Assembly (NCBI GenBank): GCA_000004985.1
Contig: GG738862.1
Strand: one strand, 5' to 3'
Length of the DNA: 64,000 nt
Source of the DNA: Naegleria gruberi
Taxonomy: Eukaryota
The number at the start of each line of letters is the position of its first letter. Position 1 is the first letter of the stretch. Shown piece by piece: positions 1,097-51,738 of the stretch. The notes below the pieces were generated by a model, which saw only the letters and a program-made list of their open reading frames with translations, made no database searches and was not told where the DNA came from. The position numbers and the translations under genes were made by a program.

Positions 1097-3838
1097 NNNN
1101 NNNNNNNNNNNNNNNNNNNNNNNNNNNNNNNNNNNNNNNNNNNNNNNNNNNNNNNNNNNNNNNNNNNNNNNNNNNNNNNNNNNNNNNNNNNNNNNNNNNN
1201 NNNNNNNNNNNNNNNNNNNNNNNNNNNNNNNNNNNNNNNNNNNNNNNNNNNNNNNNNNNNNNNNNNNNNNNNNNNNNNNNNNNNNNNNNNNNNNNNNNNN
1301 NNNNNNNNNNNNNNNNNNNNNNNNNNNNNNNNNNNNNNNNNNNNNNNNNNNNNNNNNNNNNNNNNNNNNNNNNNNNNNNNNNNNNNNNNNNNNNNNNNNN
1401 NNNNNNNNNNNNNNNNNNNNNNNNNNNNNNNNNNNNNNNNNNNNNNNNNNNNNNNNNNNNNNNNNNNNNNNNNNNNNNNNNNNNNNNNNNNNNNNNNNNN
1501 NNNNNNNNNNNNNNNNNNNNNNNNNNNNNNNNNNNNNNNNNNNNNNNNNNNNNNNNNNNNNNNNNNNNNNNNNNNNNNNNNNNNNNNNNNNNNNNNNNNN
1601 NNNNNNNNNNNNNNNNNNNNNNNNNNNNNNNNNNNNNNNNNNNNNNNNNNNNNNNNNNNNNNNNNNNNNNNNNNNNNNNNNNNNNNNNNNNNNNNNNNNN
1701 NNNNNNNNNNNNNNNNNNNNNNNNNNNNNNNNNNNNNNNNNNNNNNNNNNNNNNNNNNNNNNNNNNNNNNNNNNNNNNNNNNNNNNNNNNNNNNNNNNNN
1801 NNNNNNNNNNNNNNNNNNNNNNNNNNNNNNNNNNNNNNNNNNNNNNNNNNNNNNNNNNNNNNNNNNNNNNNNNNNNNNNNNNNNNNNNNNNNNNNNNNNN
1901 NNNNNNNNNNNNNNNNNNNNNNNNNNNNNNNNNNNNNNNNNNNNNNNNNNNNNNNNNNNNNNNNNNNNNNNNNNNNNNNNNNNNNNNNNNNNNNNNNNNN
2001 NNNNNNNNNNNNNNNNNNNNNNNNNNNNNNNNNNNNNNNNNNNNNNNNNNNNNNNNNNNNNNNNNNNNNNNNNNNNNNNNNNNNNNNNNNNNNNNNNNNN
2101 NNNNNNNNNNNNNNNNNNNNNNNNNNNNNNNNNNNNNNNNNNNNNNNNNNNNNNNNNNNNNNNNNNNNNNNNNNNNNNNNNNNNNNNNNNNNNNNNNNNN
2201 NNNNNNNNNNNNNNNNNNNNNNNNNNNNNNNNNNNNNNNNNNNNNNNNNNNNNNNNNNNNNNNNNNNNNNNNNNNNNNNNNNNNNNNNNNNNNNNNNNNN
2301 NNNNNNNNNNNNNNNNNNNNNNNNNNNNNNNNNNNNNNNNNNNNNNNNNNNNNNNNNNNNNNNNNNNNNNNNNNNNNNNNNNNNNNNNNNNNNNNNNNNN
2401 NNNNNNNNNNNNNNNNNNNNNNNNNNNNNNNNNNNNNNNNNNNNNNNNNNNNNNNNNNNNNNNNNNNNNNNNNNNNNNNNNNNNNNNNNNNNNNNNNNNN
2501 NNNNNNNNNNNNNNNNNNNNNNNNNNNNNNNNNNNNNNNNNNNNNNNNNNNNNNNNNNNNNNNNNNNNNNNNNNNNNNNNNNNNNNNNNNNNNNNNNNNN
2601 NNNNNNNNNNNNNNNNNNNNNNNNNNNNNNNNNNNNNNNNNNNNNNNNNNNNNNNNNNNNNNNNNNNNNNNNNNNNNNNNNNNNNNNNNNNNNNNNNNNN
2701 NNNNNNNNNNNNNNNNNNNNNNNNNNNNNNNNNNNNNNNNNNNNNNNNNNNNNNNNNNNNNNNNNNNNNNNNNNNNNNNNNNNNNNNNNNNNNNNNNNNN
2801 NNNNNNNNNNNNNNNNNNNNNNNNNNNNNNNNNNNNNNNNNNNNNNNNNNNNNNNNNNNNNNNNNNNNNNNNNNNNNNNNNNNNNNNNNNNNNNNNNNNN
2901 NNNNNNNNNNNNNNNNNNNNNNNNNNNNNNNNNNNNNNNNNNNNNNNNNNNNNNNNNNNNNNNNNNNNNNNNNNNNNNNNNNNNNNNNNNNNNNNNNNNN
3001 NNNNNNNNNNNNNNNNNNNNNNNNNNNNNNNNNNNNNNNNNNNNNNNNNNNNNNNNNNNNNNNNNNNNNNNNNNNNNNNNNNNNNNNNNNNNNNNNNNNN
3101 NNNNNNNNNNNNNNNNNNNNNNNNNNNNNNNNNNNNNNNNNNNNNNNNNNNNNNNNNNNNNNNNNNNNNNNNNNNNNNNNNNNNNNNNNNNNNNNNNNNN
3201 NNNNNNNNNNNNNNNNNNNNNNNNNNNNNNNNNNNNNNNNNNNNNNNNNNNNNNNNNNNNNNNNNNNNNNNNNNNNNNNNNNNNNNNNNNNNNNNNNNNN
3301 NNNNNNNNNNNNNNNNNNNNNNNNNNNNNNNNNNNNNNNNNNNNNNNNNNNNNNNNNNNNNNNNNNNNNNNNNNNNNNNNNNNNNNNNNNNNNNNNNNNN
3401 NNNNNNNNNNNNNNNNNNNNNNNNNNNNNNNNNNNNNNNNNNNNNNNNNNNNNNNNNNNNNNNNNNNNNNNNNNNNNNNNNNNNNNNNNNNNNNNNNNNN
3501 NNNNNNNNNNNNNNNNNNNNNNNNNNNNNNNNNNNNNNNNNNNNNNNNNNNNNNNNNNNNNNNNNNNNNNNNNNNNNNNNNNNNNNNNNNNNNNNNNNNN
3601 NNNNNNNNNNNNNNNNNNNNNNNNNNNNNNNNNNNNNNNNNNNNNNNNNNNNNNNNNNNNNNNNNNNNNNNNNNNNNNNNNNNNNNNNNNNNNNNNNNNN
3701 NNNNNNNNNNNNNNNNNNNNNNNNNNNNNNNNNNNNNNNNNNNNNNNNNNNNNNNNNNNNNNNNNNNNNNNNNNNNNNNNNNNNNNNNNNNNNNNNNNNN
3801 NNNNNNNNNNNNNNNNNNNNNNNNNNNNNNNNNNNNNN
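1097..3838. other. Assembly gap (2742 N).
   Basis: Run of n characters. The 1012/976/935-aa ORFs spanning it are poly-X artefacts. Confidence 0.99.
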
Positions 3839-7635: not shown

Positions 7636-7803
7636 TATTTCATAACATAAATCATCAATTATTTCTAATAATTTTTTCGTTTTCTTTCCAATAATTTTCG
7701 AATAAAACTACCAACCTCCTTGTCTACTGTTGGCTACAACCAAATCTTCATCACGTTCTTCATTCAAATCACGTTCTTGCATTTTTTTCAATGAAAAACG
7801 ACG

Positions 7804-8325
7804 ATGAAAAAAATACCTCAACAAGACCATCCTCCGGATACGGAAGGGAGTAATTTGCTTGCTGACAGGATTTTTGTGTTAGAGAGAGCAATTGAAACCT
7901 ACCAAAAGGAAAACAATAATCTCCGTGACTATCTTCAACAACTTGTAAATATATGTAATGGTCACCCGTTATTGAATAATAATAATAATAATCCCATCAA
8001 ACCTGTAAATAATAATCTGATCAATACCCAACCATCAGAAAATGAAAATCTATTTATTACTAGAAATCCAGTAAATGTTAGAAATCTACCAACTAGTAGA
8101 AATTTAATTAATGGTGGAAATTTCTTGACTGAGACAGTTCAAATATGCGATAGTAATCCTAAAAATAGAACTGTCAGTTATGCTGATATTACAAGATTAG
8201 CTCCTATTAAAGCTCAGCCATCTATTAAGAAAACAATAGCAAAACAAAAATCAACAACTAATAAGATGAAAAGAAATATGGCAACTAATACTAGACCTAA
8301 CAAACGTAAATCGAGAGTATATTAA
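7804..8325 (+). pseudogene. LINE ORF1 (copy A), terminated prematurely by the MITE insertion at 8313.
   Basis: [47 protein letters not shown]... is identical to the first about 170 aa of the 9275.. ORF. It then reads into the MITE (RVY stop). The uninterrupted sequence resumes at 8735. Confidence 0.6.
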
Positions 8326-8726: not shown

Positions 8727-8927
8727 CGTAAATCTAATTACAATCTTAATCAAATAATTAATGTAATTTGCTACAAAGATGTTACTAACGAATTTGTTGA
8801 ACAAATTACAGACCTACTCGGTGACTCTGTAATCATTAGAGTTAATCGATACTGTAATAATATTATTAATGTAATTTGCCCTGATGAAACCAGTTATAAA
8901 GAGTGTTTCAATCAATTAGTGCAAGGA

Positions 8928-8977
8928 NNNNNNNNNNNNNNNNNNNNNNNNNNNNNNNNNNNNNNNNNNNNNNNNNN
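8928..8977. other. Assembly gap (50 N).
   Basis: Run of n characters. Confidence 0.99.
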
Positions 8978-9254
8978 TTTTAGACAACATGTCAACATGT
9001 TCATCTTTGTAAATTCCTAAACATCCTGGTGAAATTCTACCAATATCCGAAACACCAGTGGCTTCTACAATAAATAAACCAGCTCCACCTACAATTCTAC
9101 TGCCAATATGTTGAACATGCCAGAAATTAGCAAATCCATCAACCGATGAGTACTGACACATTGGGGAGACGACAATACGATTCTTTAAAGTCAATCCTCT
9201 AATTTTGAATGGTTGAAAGAGTGGAGGAACGGATGAGATATCTTGTGCTGACAT
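8978..9254 (-). CDS. N-terminal fragment of an NADH:flavin oxidoreductase of the old-yellow-enzyme family (YqjM-like class). It is truncated by the gap and its ATG abuts the LINE 5' end.
   Basis: [92 protein letters not shown] matches the conserved OYE/YqjM N-terminal beta-alpha barrel start ([26 protein letters not shown]...GGAGLIIVEATAVxPxGRISPxDLGIW.DEH). Confidence 0.6.
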
Positions 9255-9274
9255 TTTTTTAATGGTTGTCGACG

Positions 9275-10247
9275 ATGAAAAAAATACCTCAACAAGACCA
9301 TCCTCCGGATACGGAAGGGAGTAATTTGCTTGCTGACAGGATTTTTGTGTTAGAGAGAGCAATTGAAACCTACCAAAAGGAAAACAATAATCTCCGTGAC
9401 TATCTTCAACAACTTGTAAATATATGTAATGGTCACCCGTTATTGAATAATAATAATAATAATCCCATCAAACCTGTAAATAATAATCTGATCAATACCC
9501 AACCATCAGAAAATGAAAATCTATTTATTACTAGAAATCCAGTAAATGTTAGAAATCTACCAACTAGTAGAAATTTAATTAATGGTGGAAATTTCTTGAC
9601 TGAGACAGTTCAAATATGCGATAGTAATCCTAAAAATAGAACTGTCAGTTATGCTGATATTACAAGATTAGCTCCTATTAAAGCTCAGCCATCTATTAAG
9701 AAAACAATAGCAAAACAAAAATCAACAACTAATAAGATGAAAAGAAATATGGCAACTAATACTAGACCTAACAAACGTAAATCTAATTACAATCTTAATC
9801 AAATAATTAATGTAATTTGCTACAAAGATGTTACTAACGAATTTGTTGAACAAATTACAGACCTACTCGGTGACTCTGTAATCATTAGAGTTAATCGATA
9901 CTGTAATAATATTATTAATGTAATTTGCCCTGATGAAACCAGTTATAAAGAGTGTTTCAATCAATTAGTGCAAGGAAGTCATGGAGGAAAATTCATATTA
10001 GAATGCTTTCCATCTCCAGCAATCTTTAATCCTAAACCTTTAGCACTTTCACATACTACTTCCAGTAAAACTACTCACCTTAAAATGCTAGAAAATATTA
10101 TTAGCAAATGTATATTGGAAGATAATATTTCTGTTGAGGAACTCTACACTAACTATTCTCATAACCAATTTATAATTAGAATATCATTTGAGGATCAAAC
10201 TATTTGCTCTCAAATGGCACAAAATCTTGGTTTAAATCAATATAAAA
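9275..10247 (+). CDS. LINE ORF1 (copy B): N-terminal coiled-coil, poly-N, then an about 150-aa C-terminal domain. It runs into the 50-N gap.
   Basis: [47 protein letters not shown] (heptad-like) ... [63 protein letters not shown]... The architecture resembles L1-type ORF1p (coiled coil plus nucleic-acid-binding domain). This is an inference. Confidence 0.45.
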
Positions 10248-10297
10248 NNNNNNNNNNNNNNNNNNNNNNNNNNNNNNNNNNNNNNNNNNNNNNNNNN
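10248..10297. other. Assembly gap (50 N).
   Basis: Run of n characters. Confidence 0.99.
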
Positions 10298-42014: not shown

Positions 42015-43006
42015 GACCCATTTTCTTTATTATCTATTGAAATTCTTGTTCAATACTCGCAATTAAAGTTCAATGTAATAATGTCACTTCTGTGTTTGCT
42101 CCATGTTCAACTATTTCAAAGAAGTCTAATCATGAAAAAACAAACAACGACCATAATTCAGTTTTCAAAAAACATCCATCGAGAAAGGTTTTTAAGATTT
42201 GTTCGAATTTCCACTCTTTGGTTTCTTCATACTTACCTTGAAGGACATTTCAGTGATCATGCAGACTGAAATGTGAATCTGGAAACTCTCCTCCTTGCAC
42301 TCAGAGGATGAGTAGCCAGAGTTTGGTCAATAATCAAAGTGGTTGTTGCACTCCTTCTCAATTTTTTCCTGTGAGGATTCATCTGGTATGATTTCTCGCT
42401 CTGTTAACAAATAGAAATTCAATGAAAATATGTGTTGAAGTGGTCTTGCATTCGAATAGTTGCTGCAACGAAGAATCTCCAACAAGTCCAAGTTACCTTG
42501 TATTGGCCTTCACTTGCTGGATTATTTAATACCAACTGAACCCAAATACATGGTGATAGATTTGCTGAAGCTACTGAATAATTCATCAAAATTTCAAAAG
42601 CTCAAGCTGTGAGTCATTTTTTATATCTTAAATAAACGTTGGATTTAAAGTGTTAATTTGAAAAAGACTACAGCACCACAGGTTCCCAAGTTGTCTCCAA
42701 CCTCAGTACTGATGTGGCTCGACGATGCTTAACTTCTCAAATCGGACGGGATGAGGTGCATTCATCGTGATATGGCCGTAGCCATTCATTTCTTCAAAAT
42801 GTTAAACTTCAATGTAGAATCCAACAGTTTGCTTTAAGCACCTACCAAATCTGTTCTTTGTATTCAACAACTCCTGTTCACACAACCCAGACCAAAAAAT
42901 CTAGGAAATCAATTTGGAATTTTCAACATTACGGACAATTCCAATCCAACAACTAACTGCACACCTCATTCCACAAACACTGTTCTTTTGAAAAAAAAAC
43001 CTTTAA

Positions 43007-45489: not shown

Positions 45490-48009
45490 TTACTGAGTGA
45501 TGGTGGCGTTGGTGATAAATTGTTGGATAACTTGTTCGGCTTTTGCAATTGCCCTTTTACCTCCTCCTAAGAGAATGCTTACAGTTGTTGGATCAGTAGG
45601 TGTAGTGGTAGTGGTGGCAATTGGGAATTTGATATATTCACATCCTGAACGATATTTGATATGGCTGGATCTGTGTGAAATCTTATTGTATTGTTCCTGA
45701 GTGATTTTAACCTCCTTTTCTCGAATGAGCAAATCATTGATTGTTCCCACTTCATGATAAGATCCAAATACAATAAATGTCTGTTCTGAAGTTCCCATAG
45801 AAACTGATGGAAAGTTCATAACCAGCTCTGCAATATGTTTACCCTTAGAACCAATTAGTTTACCAAGGAAATATTTGGAAGTAAATTGCGGAGTTTCATC
45901 TTGGGTGATTGTTACAACCCTGTTCGGATTATTATTGTTCATAAATTCAAATTCACAATTTTTAGCAAGCTCCTTTCCAACAAAGAAGTAAAGCCTCAAA
46001 TGTTGTTCCTTATTTTCATTTTGGGATTTACTCTTGTAATATTCATCCAGAGGAATATCCACATAAAAGTATCCATCGTCCATTACACCATTTTCCCTCA
46101 AGTATTCTTTTCTTTCTTCTGTAAGGTATGGAAATTCATAATCTCTCAAGGTTCCATCATATAGATAGCTTCTTCTGATAATTGTTGACGCTAGGGAAGG
46201 GCTTTCATTACCAGGTTTAAACTTTTTGTTCATGAGGTGTAATCTTTGTGTTTCATAGAGGAAGAGCAAATATTTTACGTCCAACGCAGCTCCTTCCAAT
46301 TGATCACTACTCAAAGGTCTCGTTTTCCAGTAAGTTTCCTCAGATATTACTTGTTCTTGAATGGTTTTCTTGGAGGAATAATCTATCATACAAAAGTCGT
46401 GTAGTAATCGAACCAATCCCTTAATCTTGAAATAGTTAGTGATTGGGTAGTGAGTTACAAACATTCCTAGGTTGTTGGTGTTGTTATTAGTCACAATAGT
46501 ACTAGGTTGTGAAAGTTGTTTCAATTGCCATTTTTCGTTAATATTTACAATATCCAGGGAGACAATATTTACATTAGCATCAATGTTAGTAAACAATTCA
46601 GTTGAAACAGTTGCTTCACCTTTGGCAGCATTCAAATAAGGGCTAGACGGTGACAATACTGCTTGCTCAGTATTCATCCAAGATTTGATAGTTTCTCGCA
46701 AGTTTTCCAGATTATCATTTATACAATCATCGTCCTCAATGTTCTTTTCACTGAGAAAGACTACCAAATAATTTAATCTGACAATATAGTAAGTCAACTC
46801 TAGATTGGATTCAATTTCTTGGGATATTAACACGTCCAATATCTTTTCAATAAATAATTTTCTCTCAATAACTCTTAGGTGATATAAATTTACAATAAAT
46901 ATAATGTTAAGAAAACCAGTTCTTTCAAACATGTTGGTAGCCACTGTTTTGCTAATTAGTTCAGAGCTGGTAGGTAATATAGAACTATTATGTTTGGCAC
47001 TTTGACTATTTAAATGGTTTCTAGATTGGTATTCGTCAAAATTAGCTTTAGAAAGTGTTGATGTGAATTTTTCAATAGTCTTTTCTATGATTTGATCCTT
47101 GAAGGCTTTCAAAAACTTGTCCTTTCCATCCTTTTGGAAAAATACACTATTCCTAACATTATTTGTAACATCTCTACAAAATTTAGCTGCTATATGGGCA
47201 TCTTTTCTTTCATGTGACTTGAAACTATGGGCTGCATTTACAATCATGTTGGCAATGGAACGAGCACAGTCGGCTTGAAGTTCTGGAGCTTGCTTATAGT
47301 TTTGCTTGTTATAGGTTTCCTTTACAAAATCTTCCAAATCAGTCATGAATCCCTTCAACATGTCACCATAGTGTTCAGGTGAGCTATTTCCTGTAATCAA
47401 ATCGATGTAACAAAACCACTTGACAAACTTGGGCAAGAAGTTTGATTCAAATAAGGATAAAACAGTGTTATTACTCTTATATAGAGAATAGAATACATGA
47501 CTTTGTCTTATAGAAACATCAGCAATTTGTGTGTCGAATGTGAAATTTAGTTTGGTTCCATTCATTTGATAGAAGAGAACATCCGAATCTCTTCTACCAT
47601 CATGGATTACTTTTAGTACTGTTTTGGACTCTAGGAGTTTTCGGAGATTGGTCTTGTTTGATAACTCTTGTCCTCCAATTTTAAATACATCAATAATGTA
47701 AATATCTAGAATTTCAGGATGTAATTTGTTAATTAAAGATATTTGTATAATACATAGTGTTCCACTTTGCTTGACTAGATCAGGAGATCCTTCACAATCA
47801 AGACCAATACAAGGGGTATTGTTGTTGTATAAATGTGTTTGTGAAAAGGAATTTGTCCTATTTCTACATGATTCTCCTTGCTCTAGTAAATCCTCTACTA
47901 TTGGACTTAACTTTTCTGTGTAAACCTCCAAAGAGTCAATCAAGTGAACAACATGATTGATAGAAAGAACATTCGTGTCCGAGACACCATTGTTATTATT
48001 AGAAATCAT
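45490..48009 (-). CDS. Protein of 839 aa with an N-terminal 3'-5' exonuclease (DEDD, RNase D/WRN-exo-like) domain and a C-terminal KH domain.
   Basis: Exonuclease motifs PCIGLDCEG...LCIIQIS and VIHDGRRDSDVLFY. KH motif FLGKLIGSKGKHIAELVMNFPSV near the C-terminus. Confidence 0.6.
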   Translation of the reverse strand: MISNNNNGVSDTNVLSINHVVHLIDSLEVYTEKLSPIVEDLLEQGESCRNRTNSFSQTHLYNNNTPCIGLDCEGSPDLVKQSGTLCIIQISLINKLHPEILDIYIIDVFKIGGQELSNKTNLRKLLESKTVLKVIHDGRRDSDVLFYQMNGTKLNFTFDTQIADVSIRQSHVFYSLYKSNNTVLSLFESNFLPKFVKWFCYIDLITGNSSPEHYGDMLKGFMTDLEDFVKETYNKQNYKQAPELQADCARSIANMIVNAAHSFKSHERKDAHIAAKFCRDVTNNVRNSVFFQKDGKDKFLKAFKDQIIEKTIEKFTSTLSKANFDEYQSRNHLNSQSAKHNSSILPTSSELISKTVATNMFERTGFLNIIFIVNLYHLRVIERKLFIEKILDVLISQEIESNLELTYYIVRLNYLVVFLSEKNIEDDDCINDNLENLRETIKSWMNTEQAVLSPSSPYLNAAKGEATVSTELFTNIDANVNIVSLDIVNINEKWQLKQLSQPSTIVTNNNTNNLGMFVTHYPITNYFKIKGLVRLLHDFCMIDYSSKKTIQEQVISEETYWKTRPLSSDQLEGAALDVKYLLFLYETQRLHLMNKKFKPGNESPSLASTIIRRSYLYDGTLRDYEFPYLTEERKEYLRENGVMDDGYFYVDIPLDEYYKSKSQNENKEQHLRLYFFVGKELAKNCEFEFMNNNNPNRVVTITQDETPQFTSKYFLGKLIGSKGKHIAELVMNFPSVSMGTSEQTFIVFGSYHEVGTINDLLIREKEVKITQEQYNKISHRSSHIKYRSGCEYIKFPIATTTTTPTDPTTVSILLGGGKRAIAKAEQVIQQFITNATITQ

Positions 48010-48572: not shown

Positions 48573-49208
48573 TCAAGGCATTACCTTTTTGAGTTGTTCA
48601 TTGACTTGATTTTTCAAAGAATTGATTCCTTCCTTTGCTGCTATATCAATTGTTGATTGAATGAGTTTGGAATTGGATGATGTAAAATCTTTCATTGAGG
48701 AAATTGTTGACTTGACACTCTGTGCCATGTTCTGTTTGAATTTGGAATATCTTGAGGTTATATTTTCCTTAATTTTCTGGATTGCTTGGTTGACTGATTG
48801 TTTGGAATTGTTTCTGAACTGGTTGATCTTGTCTTTCAACATTTGTTCAGTGATTTTTTGTTTATCCCTTACCAAGTTTTCAATTCTATCGACTTCTGTC
48901 TGAGCTTTTGTATTTGTTGCCTCGACAGCTTCCTCAACATTCCTTTCAACTGTTTCTTGGATATCATGATTGACTTTTTGGACTTGTTTATCAATATAAA
49001 ACTTTTTCTTATTGACATAGTTTTGAATTTGATCCTTGACAGCTAAAGTGTCCTCCTTGAAATCTTCCTTCTTTACATTGAGGAATGATGAGCTAGCTGT
49101 AGGTTGATTTGGTTGGAGAGAAACAGATTCAGAGGAAGAGATGGAAAGTACTACAATGAGCAGTATGCCCAATAGCAAGATGGTTGTTTGTTGATTTGTT
49201 TTTTTCAT
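48573..49208 (-). CDS. Secreted coiled-coil protein (211 aa).
   Basis: Signal peptide MKKTNQQTTILLLGILLIVVLSISSS, followed by a K/Q/E-rich heptad-like sequence. Confidence 0.55.
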   Translation of the reverse strand: MKKTNQQTTILLLGILLIVVLSISSSESVSLQPNQPTASSSFLNVKKEDFKEDTLAVKDQIQNYVNKKKFYIDKQVQKVNHDIQETVERNVEEAVEATNTKAQTEVDRIENLVRDKQKITEQMLKDKINQFRNNSKQSVNQAIQKIKENITSRYSKFKQNMAQSVKSTISSMKDFTSSNSKLIQSTIDIAAKEGINSLKNQVNEQLKKVMP

Positions 49209-49689
49209 TTTGTTTGATGCTCAAAGAGAATTGTTATGCGAATCGCATACAAAATTTATAATTCGAATTTTTTTCTGTTTTTGGTAAGAGAATTTGATAT
49301 AAGGAAACCATTTGTAACAATGTGCGCCTTTCTTTTCAAGATGCCGTATGAAAATTCAACATGAAATTATAAATCAGATCCGACAATGAAACTCTACCAC
49401 TCCATATTTAATCAAAGTAGACAAAGAAAATATTAAACAATTAAATAATAATAAAAAATAATTTCTGATATTCTGAAGAAAGTAAAAATCAGAAATACCG
49501 AATATTTAATTAATAAAATATTTAATATTAATTACAATTAAGCATATTATAATATTGATTAATTAATAAAATAATAAATATTTTTAAAAAATACTAATAG
49601 CATGTTGAATTTAGAACTTGAACAGTTGAAACGTTAAATGAACATAATAAAGTTCTATTACAATGTAAAATATATTTTAAATATAAAAA

Positions 49690-49859
49690 ACAAAAAATAA
49701 GATAGGGGTCTGATCTTCCTTCCATTTTTGGATTCAACACACAAACAATAAATAGTTTGTAATTAATTTCAAGTTAAGGGCCTGATCTTCCTTCCAAATA
49801 TTGATAAAATGACCCCAGGATTAGAAGTCCTGTGCTCTATCCAACTGAGCTATGACGGC
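49690..49859 (-). mobile_element. tRNA-Arg(UCU)-derived SINE-like unit. The tRNA head is intact through the anticodon stem (49859-49811). It lacks a T-arm and acceptor 3' half, and is followed by two copies of GGRCCTGATCTTCCTTCCA 72 bp apart and a T-run.
   Basis: Minus strand: GCCGTCA TA GCTC AGTTGGATA GAGC A CAGGA CTTCTAA TCCTG GGGTC, then a non-tRNA sequence. The A box TAGCTCAGTTGG is intact. Repeats lie at 49778-49796 and 49706-49724 (plus-strand coordinates). A6 runs at 49685-49698 give TTTTTTGTTTTTT on the transcribed strand. Confidence 0.4.
49811..49859 (-). tRNA. Truncated tRNA-Arg (anticodon TCT) 5' portion: acceptor 5' strand, D-arm and anticodon arm only.
   Basis: See the cloverleaf parse above. 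No GCCGTCA-complementary 3' acceptor strand or TTCGAAT T-loop follows. Confidence 0.45.
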
Positions 49860-50090
49860 TTTATTTCTTCTAATATTAAGGGGAGGCTCACACAACAAAC
49901 AAGTTAGGGGTTATAGTTAAGCTCCCTAAAACCACATTCTTGGAATCGATATCGGAGATGTGTAAATCTTGTCAAACTATCATCACTATTTCTGTTATTG
50001 TAATACACTGTTCAAAAATGTATTCAGTAGTCATTGATTTTCCTCTTTGACCAAAATTCAACACAAAATTCATATGGCTCGCCACGTTTA

Positions 50091-50161
50091 CCGTCTCGGG
50101 AGGAATCGAACCTCCGTCAATGGATTCAAAGTCCACTATGCTACCATTACACCACGAGACG
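50091..50161 (-). tRNA. tRNA-Gln (anticodon TTG), 71 nt, no intron.
   Basis: Minus strand: CGTCTCG TG GTGTAATGGTAGCAT AGTGGA CTTTGAA TCCAT TGAC GGAGG TTCGATT CCTCC CGAGACG G. The acceptor stem is a perfect 7 bp, the T-arm is GGAGG/CCTCC with a TTCGATT loop, and the layout is near-identical to eukaryotic tRNA-Gln. Confidence 0.8.
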
Positions 50162-51738
50162 AGCACATAGACGCTAAAATTCTTGTGTTGATATAACGCT
50201 ACCATTACGTCTGTTTTTTAATTGTTGCTGGAATCAGTTTCAATGACATTCAACCCTGTTGTAAAGTTAGGTCAATAAATATTGAATGCAAAGTTATAAC
50301 AAGGATTGGTCACATGATTGAACATCAGTTTCGAATTTTCTTTCAACTCGTTGTATACAACAGTTGTTTTAATAGAAGAATATTCTATCATATCCAAAAA
50401 GTTTAGTTTCCTTCCGAATGCATCAAAAAATACCAAATCCGGAGATTCTATTACTAAAAGTAAAATTTAGTAATTTGAATTTCAAAGTTGGTGCAAAAGT
50501 TCTGAAAATCAAGTACAGTTCCCTAATCGTTGAACACTGCATCAAAATTACCTCTATTGTAAATTGTCAACCCTTTCCTGCAAATATATCAACATTGTTT
50601 AGGTTGTCTTTGATTGAAATTTTACTCCCATTCACCAAAACAATATTTTTCATTCATTGGAATGCTCTTCCTTTTCAGTTTACAAATCATCCAAACTCTC
50701 TGCTTTCAATTTGAATATTAAATCATGAAATTTGTCAATTATTAATAACTTGAAGTCTATTGAAATGCAATTCACATGAATTACCTAACAAGTTGAATTG
50801 GTAATCAGACCTGCCATGTGTTGATGGAGATAACGAGGTCTGTGTTTCTCAATATCGACATCCAAAAATTCATCTTTTCAACGTTCATAATCAACACATT
50901 CATATGAATCATAACGAATCTTTCAACATGCATCAATGAAATCCACAATTTCACTTATTTAAATATTTGAAACTTAGTTGGCATTCTGCATTCTCTTTGA
51001 ACATTAAGTGGCGTTCATGGTTTTTCAAATCCACAAACGGAAAGGAAATCTATATTCCGGTTTATCGATAAACACCAAAACACTCTTCTTGTCTCATGTG
51101 TCAGCTATTGATTTTGGTACGATCACCGCTTTATTTACATGTTCCTTCTCATGTCAACTAGAAATGTCTTTATTGATACTTTCTACAGAGCAATAATTTT
51201 GAGAGAATCTTTGTAAGAGCACAATTGAGGCCATCATGTTGACTCTTATTGGACAATCTAAACTGAAATGGTTAGTTTGATAGCTTGTTTGTGATGTGAT
51301 GCATTTTCTCTTGTGAATCACAGAGAGGAGCGAGTTGTTATTATGGTCCAAAAACGCAAAACCACAGTCCAAATGAATAAAAGCCATGAACAATGCGACT
51401 TGTTACCTCAAAACAAATCAAAACAAATAACATCACACCCTGAAGCGAGTGCTAACAACGAACAGCCTTGTTTTCCGAAGCCTTTGAAAACTTATTCTCC
51501 CCAACACCCAATAATTGCTACAGGCTGATCCATCCTAAGATAAATTCTATTAGGTGTTATCACTCTACCAATTAATTCAATCTACCCTTTTAATTTATTA
51601 TCCACTTTATCGCGAGACGTCTCTCTTACACACACAAGTCCAAAGCCTTGATTGCGAGATACCAACCAACAACACCCAACCAACCTACACAACCGAATTT
51701 CCTCATCATCCAAAACAATATATTCACTAACAAAGAAA

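Follow-up and report, generated by a model that had tools for sequence, protein, structure and literature searches.

Alternative end joining and replication slippage leave short templated insertions and micro-duplications. Extragenic B boxes are familiar from the tRNA genes of Dictyostelium, which have an ex-B box downstream, and from the yeast U6 gene SNR6, where a B box likewise lies downstream. A tRNA-derived SINE combines a 5' head of tRNA type with a body unrelated to tRNA and with T runs further down; the head has both the A and the B box, and an A-rich, simple-repeat or LINE-derived tail, flanking target-site duplications and many dispersed genomic copies complete the picture. Closest to the case described here are the pseudogenes and relics of eukaryotic tRNA genes. 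Naegleria gruberi has 924 tRNA loci, 41 of which were called pseudogenes; partially degraded tRNA copies have been tied to rearrangements, and tRNA loci turn over fast (PMC2888827).

Here we examine a tRNA locus in a 64-kb stretch of N. gruberi DNA, referred to below as the window. We consider it quite probable that the sequence at 49859..49811 is the dead relic of an N. gruberi tRNA-Arg(UCU) gene, truncated by one rearrangement that was accompanied by local micro-duplications. Like the relics described earlier, it is an unmistakable tRNA fragment that stays below detection thresholds, it has an intact tRNA gene less than 1 kb away and so forms part of a tDNA cluster, and it sits in a genome with many tRNA loci and poor syntenic conservation; unlike them, its head is undecayed, is cut at the border of a structural domain and meets a 35-nt local duplication at the junction (PMC2888827).

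The minus-strand sequence of 49859..49811 is GCCGTCA TA GCTC AGTTGGATA GAGC A CAGGA CTTCTAA TCCTG GGGTC, which corresponds to tRNA positions 1-49 and places the UCU anticodon at 49825..49823. This segment, the Arg head, contains the 5' acceptor strand, the D arm with its A box (TAGCTCAGTTGG), the anticodon arm and the variable loop. All of these parts are flawless, with no decay mutation at any canonical position. The T arm, the B box and the 3' acceptor strand are all absent from it. At relaxed thresholds, the Rfam tRNA model matches 49859..49789 on the minus strand with 26.6 bits, short of its gathering score of 29. From position 1 the head aligns well up to the variable loop; beyond it, the T-arm and acceptor positions that the model forces onto the following sequence are left unpaired. 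ARAGORN, run on the 64-kb window, did not call the head as a tRNA. The locus therefore has neither the complete cloverleaf nor the covariance-model score of a functional tRNA gene, and what it does have, clear partial tRNA homology with essential elements lost, is what characterizes a tRNA pseudogene or relic. The first-pass annotation, made from the letters of the window, had described a tRNA-Arg(UCU)-like sequence that is canonical and then diverges, with neither T arm nor 3' acceptor strand. Both observations hold, and the clean part can now be said to run to position 49.

The point of divergence can be located by comparison with intact genes of the same kind. A 28-nt piece of the Arg head was used as the query in a scan of 241 million metagenome records, and exact matches were obtained only in three contigs, all of them intact tRNA-Arg(UCU) genes in giant-virus metagenome-assembled genomes (MAGs). 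Aligned to these three genes, L004 and L006 among them, the head is identical at 42 of 42 positions (tRNA positions 8-49). After position 49, the intact genes continue with G(A/T)GGGTTCGAG.., and the window has ATTTTATC in that place, so that similarity is lost exactly where the intact genes start the T stem. Because identity gives out where the T stem begins, the breakpoint can be placed at 49811/49810, on the border between variable loop and T stem, the reference for this placement being giant-virus tRNAs with a common core rather than N. gruberi's own intact tRNA-Arg(UCU).

A matching 3' half was sought in the surrounding DNA. The required 3' acceptor strand, TGACGGC, has zero occurrences on the minus strand of the whole 64-kb window. 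When one mismatch or G-U pairs were allowed, no such strand appeared within 900 nt downstream of the head, and with one mismatch none appeared within 230 nt upstream of it. Since neither a 3' acceptor strand nor a B box was found in these searches, a misplaced intron and a permuted gene were both rejected as readings of the locus. A complete non-canonical tRNA-Arg, the outcome that the first-pass annotation had named as fatal to its own view, is excluded locally. A trans-split tRNA-Arg gene is a possibility in form only. The predicted fold of the 186-nt region was no better than that of shuffled controls (z = +0.41), with nothing predicted beyond the tRNA arms, and a structured-RNA reading was rejected as well.

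What follows the head on the minus strand is, in order, ATTTT, a first repeat copy R1 (49805..49771, ATCAATATTTGGAAGGAAGATCAGGCCCTTAACTT), a 37-nt spacer, a second copy R2 (49733..49699, ATCCAAAAATGGAAGGAAGATCAGACCCCTATCTT) and two T6 runs (49697..49692 and 49690..49685). The TTTT run at 49809..49806, picked up in a scan for terminator-like sequence as an anticodon stem followed by ATTTT, begins one base past the breakpoint and would serve as a Pol III stop were the head transcribed. R1, which adjoins the breakpoint, and R2 are 35 nt long each, are 80% identical, share an exact 15-mer core and stand at a spacing of 72 bp. The 19-mer by which the first-pass annotation had identified this repeat has two matches in the window at up to three mismatches, against 0.01 expected. 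That two copies lie 72 bp apart (49699-49733 and 49771-49805) and that the unit closes in T runs on the transcribed strand (one T4 and two T6) is as the annotation had said. The borders of the repeats show no clear microhomology, and no open reading frame covering the head-repeat unit is longer than 48 aa. Two further readings of the repeat were tried and rejected: as a C/D snoRNA, whose C box is missing, and as the primer-binding site of an LTR element (TGG...), for which the 3' end implied for the primer does not look like that of a tRNA.

About 230 bp separate this unit from the tRNA-Gln(UUG) gene, which the first-pass annotation had called intact and which remains so in our hands. ARAGORN places the gene at 50162..50090 on the minus strand, with the anticodon at 50129..50127, as its sole tRNA in the whole window, and Rfam scores it at 68.8 bits, with the whole model (positions 1-71) aligned. 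Its 3' flank has TTTT runs at 50068..50065 and 50056..50053, 22 and 34 nt downstream of the gene and bracketing the 9-mer TGTGTTGAA; these runs are likely to be the Pol III termination sites of tRNA-Gln. On present evidence from the sequence, tRNA-Gln(UUG) alone is predicted to be the functional gene of the pair. The partial D-arm copy that had been reported upstream of the gene on the same strand also turned up in our repeat search, as an exact 11-nt copy of a D-arm/A-box segment (GTAATGGTAGC) at 50208..50198, 35 nt upstream of the gene; its source is tRNA-Gln 50150..50140, and the flanks of the copy show no relation to tRNA. The 11-mer has just two matches in the window against 0.00 expected, and both this repeat and R1/R2 are beyond chance. 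Between the Arg relic and tRNA-Gln there is also a small hairpin of the form TTAGGG-N-CCCTAA (ttaggggttatagttaagctccctaa) at 49905-49930 on the plus strand.

The first-pass annotation had further pointed to a B-box-like motif in the repeats. The sequence in question, GTTGAATCC, is present at 49738..49730 on the minus strand, where it runs from the spacer into R2, the downstream repeat copy. A slightly longer stretch, GTGTGTTGAATCC (49742..49730), resembles a T stem and T loop (GTGGGTTCGAATCC), from which it differs by one substitution and one deletion, and the invariant C56 is missing. In classical yeast work, mutation of C56 abolishes TFIIIC binding. GTTGAATCC belongs with a heptamer, GTTGAAT, that occurs 20 times in the window, has 6 of the 20 occurrences within 49354-50792, and clusters again in the promoter region of an EF-hand gene (54694, 54725, 54964). 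Because C56 is missing and GTTGAAT is locally frequent, GTTGAATCC is probably a common intergenic motif and not a TFIIIC site. The motif is thus where the annotation saw it.

The related 9-mer TGTGTTGAA occurs six times in the window. Three of the six occurrences lie on the same strand as, and just downstream of, small-RNA genes or the Arg head: at 42431 (+), 33 nt after a U1 snRNA gene; at 50065..50057 (-), 25 nt after tRNA-Gln; and at 49741..49733 (-), 70 nt after the Arg head. A shared 3'-flank element could explain this arrangement, as could chance.

For the truncated gene, the following course of events would account for these features. A single deletion or replacement would have taken the gene from the start of the T stem to its end, plus some flank, and with it the B box required by TFIIIC and the 3' acceptor strand. 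R1, at the junction, would be a diverged copy of R2, which lies 72 bp further on, and the 11-nt D-arm copy upstream of tRNA-Gln would be a second small local duplication. We infer that R1 and the 11-mer were left behind by break repair or by slippage during replication, for example as short templated patches from nearby DNA. The locus resembles known templated insertions in that copies of 11-35 nt lie tens of bases from their source, one of them at a deletion junction; it differs from them in having no clear microhomology at the borders and in the identity of R1 and R2, which is only 80%.

With the B box and the 3' acceptor strand lost, the Arg relic cannot yield a tRNA, and it probably is not transcribed independently, since a head of this kind should not recruit TFIIIC. 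The age of the event can be judged from two features. Because the head has no mutation at any canonical position, the truncation appears to be recent; an undecayed head is a poor fit for a long-dead pseudogene, and either the truncation is recent or the head has been kept for some reason. The divergence of R1 from R2 means either that the event is not very recent or that the copying was error-prone.

The first-pass annotation had offered the layout as that of a tRNA-derived SINE or of a tRNA gene destroyed by rearrangement. Under the first of these readings, the Arg unit would be one copy of a tRNA-Arg-derived SINE, or of another dispersed N. gruberi repeat family, in which a head related to tRNA would be followed by a body with the two repeats 72 bp apart and the whole would close in Pol III stops. 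The succession of head, non-tRNA sequence and T runs does look like this; an undecayed head would fit a young or active family, and the unusually numerous tRNA loci of N. gruberi also speak in its favor. The other hallmarks that could be tested are missing, however. The head has an A box and no internal B box, the nearest look-alike being GTTGAATCC, about 70 nt away; there is no A-rich, simple-repeat or LINE-derived tail, the minus strand running instead through the T6 runs into AT-rich intergenic DNA; and no target-site duplication of at least 7 nt is found, the 40 nt upstream of the head having no k-mer longer than 6 nt in common with 49730-49600. Self-BLAST shows neither a second copy of the unit in the 64-kb window nor any repeat common to the tRNA locus and the rest of the window. 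That the unit is single-copy, the other outcome named in the annotation as refuting it, thus holds for the window. Nor does the repeat motif occur in some 60 kb of DNA from other Naegleria (loci of N. fowleri and N. lovaniensis and on a third contig that is Naegleria-like) or in IMG/VR; the unit is missing from JGI metagenomes as well, and the metagenome matches to the 28-nt head were, as noted above, to intact giant-virus tRNAs only. No Naegleria tRNA-SINE or tRNA-targeting element is described in the literature that we searched, and SINEs account for 0.04% of the N. fowleri genome (PMC6831594). We therefore regard a SINE or dispersed-family origin as unlikely: of the two options given in the annotation, rearrangement fits everything that was tested, and every testable SINE hallmark fails. 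The annotation's related suggestion of retroelement integration in the tRNA neighborhood is not borne out either, as no retroelement remains near these tRNAs by self-BLAST or by Pfam; the latter finds no reverse transcriptase, integrase or transposase domain in the open reading frames of 48.5-52 kb at E <= 1. A variant, that head, R1, spacer and R2 together make up an undescribed, N. gruberi-specific repeat family headed by tRNA-Arg, or that the undecayed head with its TTTT is transcribed as an RNA resembling a tRNA 5' fragment, strikes us as a long shot. Such a family could be a SINE-like element that does without a B box, or the footprint of the process behind the roughly 900 tRNA loci.

The unit might also be functional in its present form, as a Pol III unit making an RNA of about 50 nt that resembles a tRNA 5' fragment, or as one half, the 5' one, of a tRNA that is split and joined to its partner in trans. 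Its parts would be the A box in the head, the TTTT stop and a downstream extragenic B-box-like element, an arrangement similar to that of SNR6. The head is perfectly conserved, A box included; a T4 run begins one base past it; GTGTGTTGAATCC lies about 70 nt downstream; and the related TGTGTTGAA is found after tRNA-Gln and U1 as well. B-box-like motifs 25 nt past tRNA-Gln and about 70 nt past the Arg head do recall the ex-B boxes of Dictyostelium and the downstream box of SNR6, but the motif here is without the invariant C, also follows U1, which is a Pol II gene, and is frequent in the neighboring intergenic DNA, Pol II promoter regions included. Against this reading there are also the lack of predicted structure beyond the tRNA arms and the failure to find a 3' half bearing TGACGGC in the window. 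We know of no split tRNA genes in eukaryotic nuclear genomes, and archaeal split tRNA genes break at other positions. All told, we rate a functional unit as very improbable. Slighter still is the chance that assembly of the draft created the 49811/49810 junction by a chimeric join. The scaffold does contain gaps, and near-identical duplicated blocks flank gaps elsewhere in the window, a sign of local imperfections in the draft, but the nearest run of N is more than 39 kb from the Arg locus, gene order on either side agrees with that of three other Naegleria-type contigs, and a chimeric join would leave the R1/R2 duplication unexplained.

The duplicated blocks just mentioned are direct duplications of 7780-8312 with 9252-9783 (533 bp, 98.9% identity) and of 8727-8927 with 9776-9976 (201 bp, 100% identity). 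Runs of N are found at 1097-3838, 8928-8977 and 10248-10297, and both duplications abut 50-N gaps, which suggests redundancy of the assembly at the gaps and not biology.

Comparison with other Naegleria places the tRNA pair in a wider setting. The window is nuclear DNA with a GC content of about 33%, and the Arg/Gln locus falls in a 3.6-kb interval between a 3'-5' exonuclease gene (ORF 45490-48009, minus strand) and a Myb gene with its start near 51650. The exonuclease ORF is 100% identical over 839 aa to a predicted N. gruberi protein; its closest relatives are proteins of N. fowleri and N. lovaniensis, at 46% identity. In both species (contigs L001 and L003, respectively) the order exonuclease, Myb, 202-aa protein, EF-hand protein and 245-aa protein is kept, and on a third Naegleria-like contig (L010) the exonuclease and Myb genes are also adjacent. 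The exonuclease-Myb interval measures 0.9-2.2 kb on these three contigs, compared with 3.6 kb here. None of the three has a tRNA or tRNA relic in the interval, even at relaxed thresholds, nor does the interval contain alignable non-coding DNA. The tRNA pair at this site is therefore not ancestral to all of the compared lineages, and either gain or loss may account for the difference. Because the other intervals are without tRNAs, we infer turnover of tRNA genes at this spot, in agreement with the fast turnover of tRNA loci already published (PMC2888827).

Read as a truncated gene, then, the Arg relic would be a clean case of ordinary tRNA-gene turnover in a genome rich in tRNA loci, one in which the sharp breakpoint and the micro-duplications are still visible. 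Should the same junction be found at many genomic sites, it would point to how N. gruberi multiplied its tRNA genes or, alternatively, would suggest a repeat family of tRNA origin, the first in Heterolobosea.

The same neighborhood has other features of its own. A 211-aa ORF at 48573-49208 (-) has an N-terminal hydrophobic segment followed by a coiled-coil-like, low-complexity body; its Pfam matches are all sub-threshold, and it has no counterpart in the corresponding interval of N. fowleri, N. lovaniensis or L010. It makes up part of the N. gruberi-specific expansion of the exonuclease-Myb intergenic region. On the far side of the exonuclease gene, the U1 snRNA gene lies at 42229-42398 (+), with the canonical start ATACTTACCT; its score of 55.2 bits (E = 5e-11) is below the Rfam gathering score of 69.5. 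About 270 bp from it is a 5S rRNA gene at 42665-42783 (-), with 105 bits, and a 5S gene is also present in the syntenic neighborhood of N. lovaniensis (L003 15779-15897).

The giant-virus genes that served as reference for the breakpoint are located at 3351-3424 in L004, 1675-1748 in L005 and 5589-5662 in L006, on the same contigs as L007-L009. In two of the three contigs, tRNA-Arg sits in a cluster of the order Ile(UAU)-Arg(UCU)-Leu(UAA), and the proteins encoded on the contigs include Hsp70, serine hydroxymethyltransferase (SHMT), a haem peroxidase and a topoisomerase. The viral tRNA-Arg core (positions 8-49) is the same as that of the Naegleria head and the acceptor stems differ; the identity of the core hints at a host-like tRNA in these viruses.
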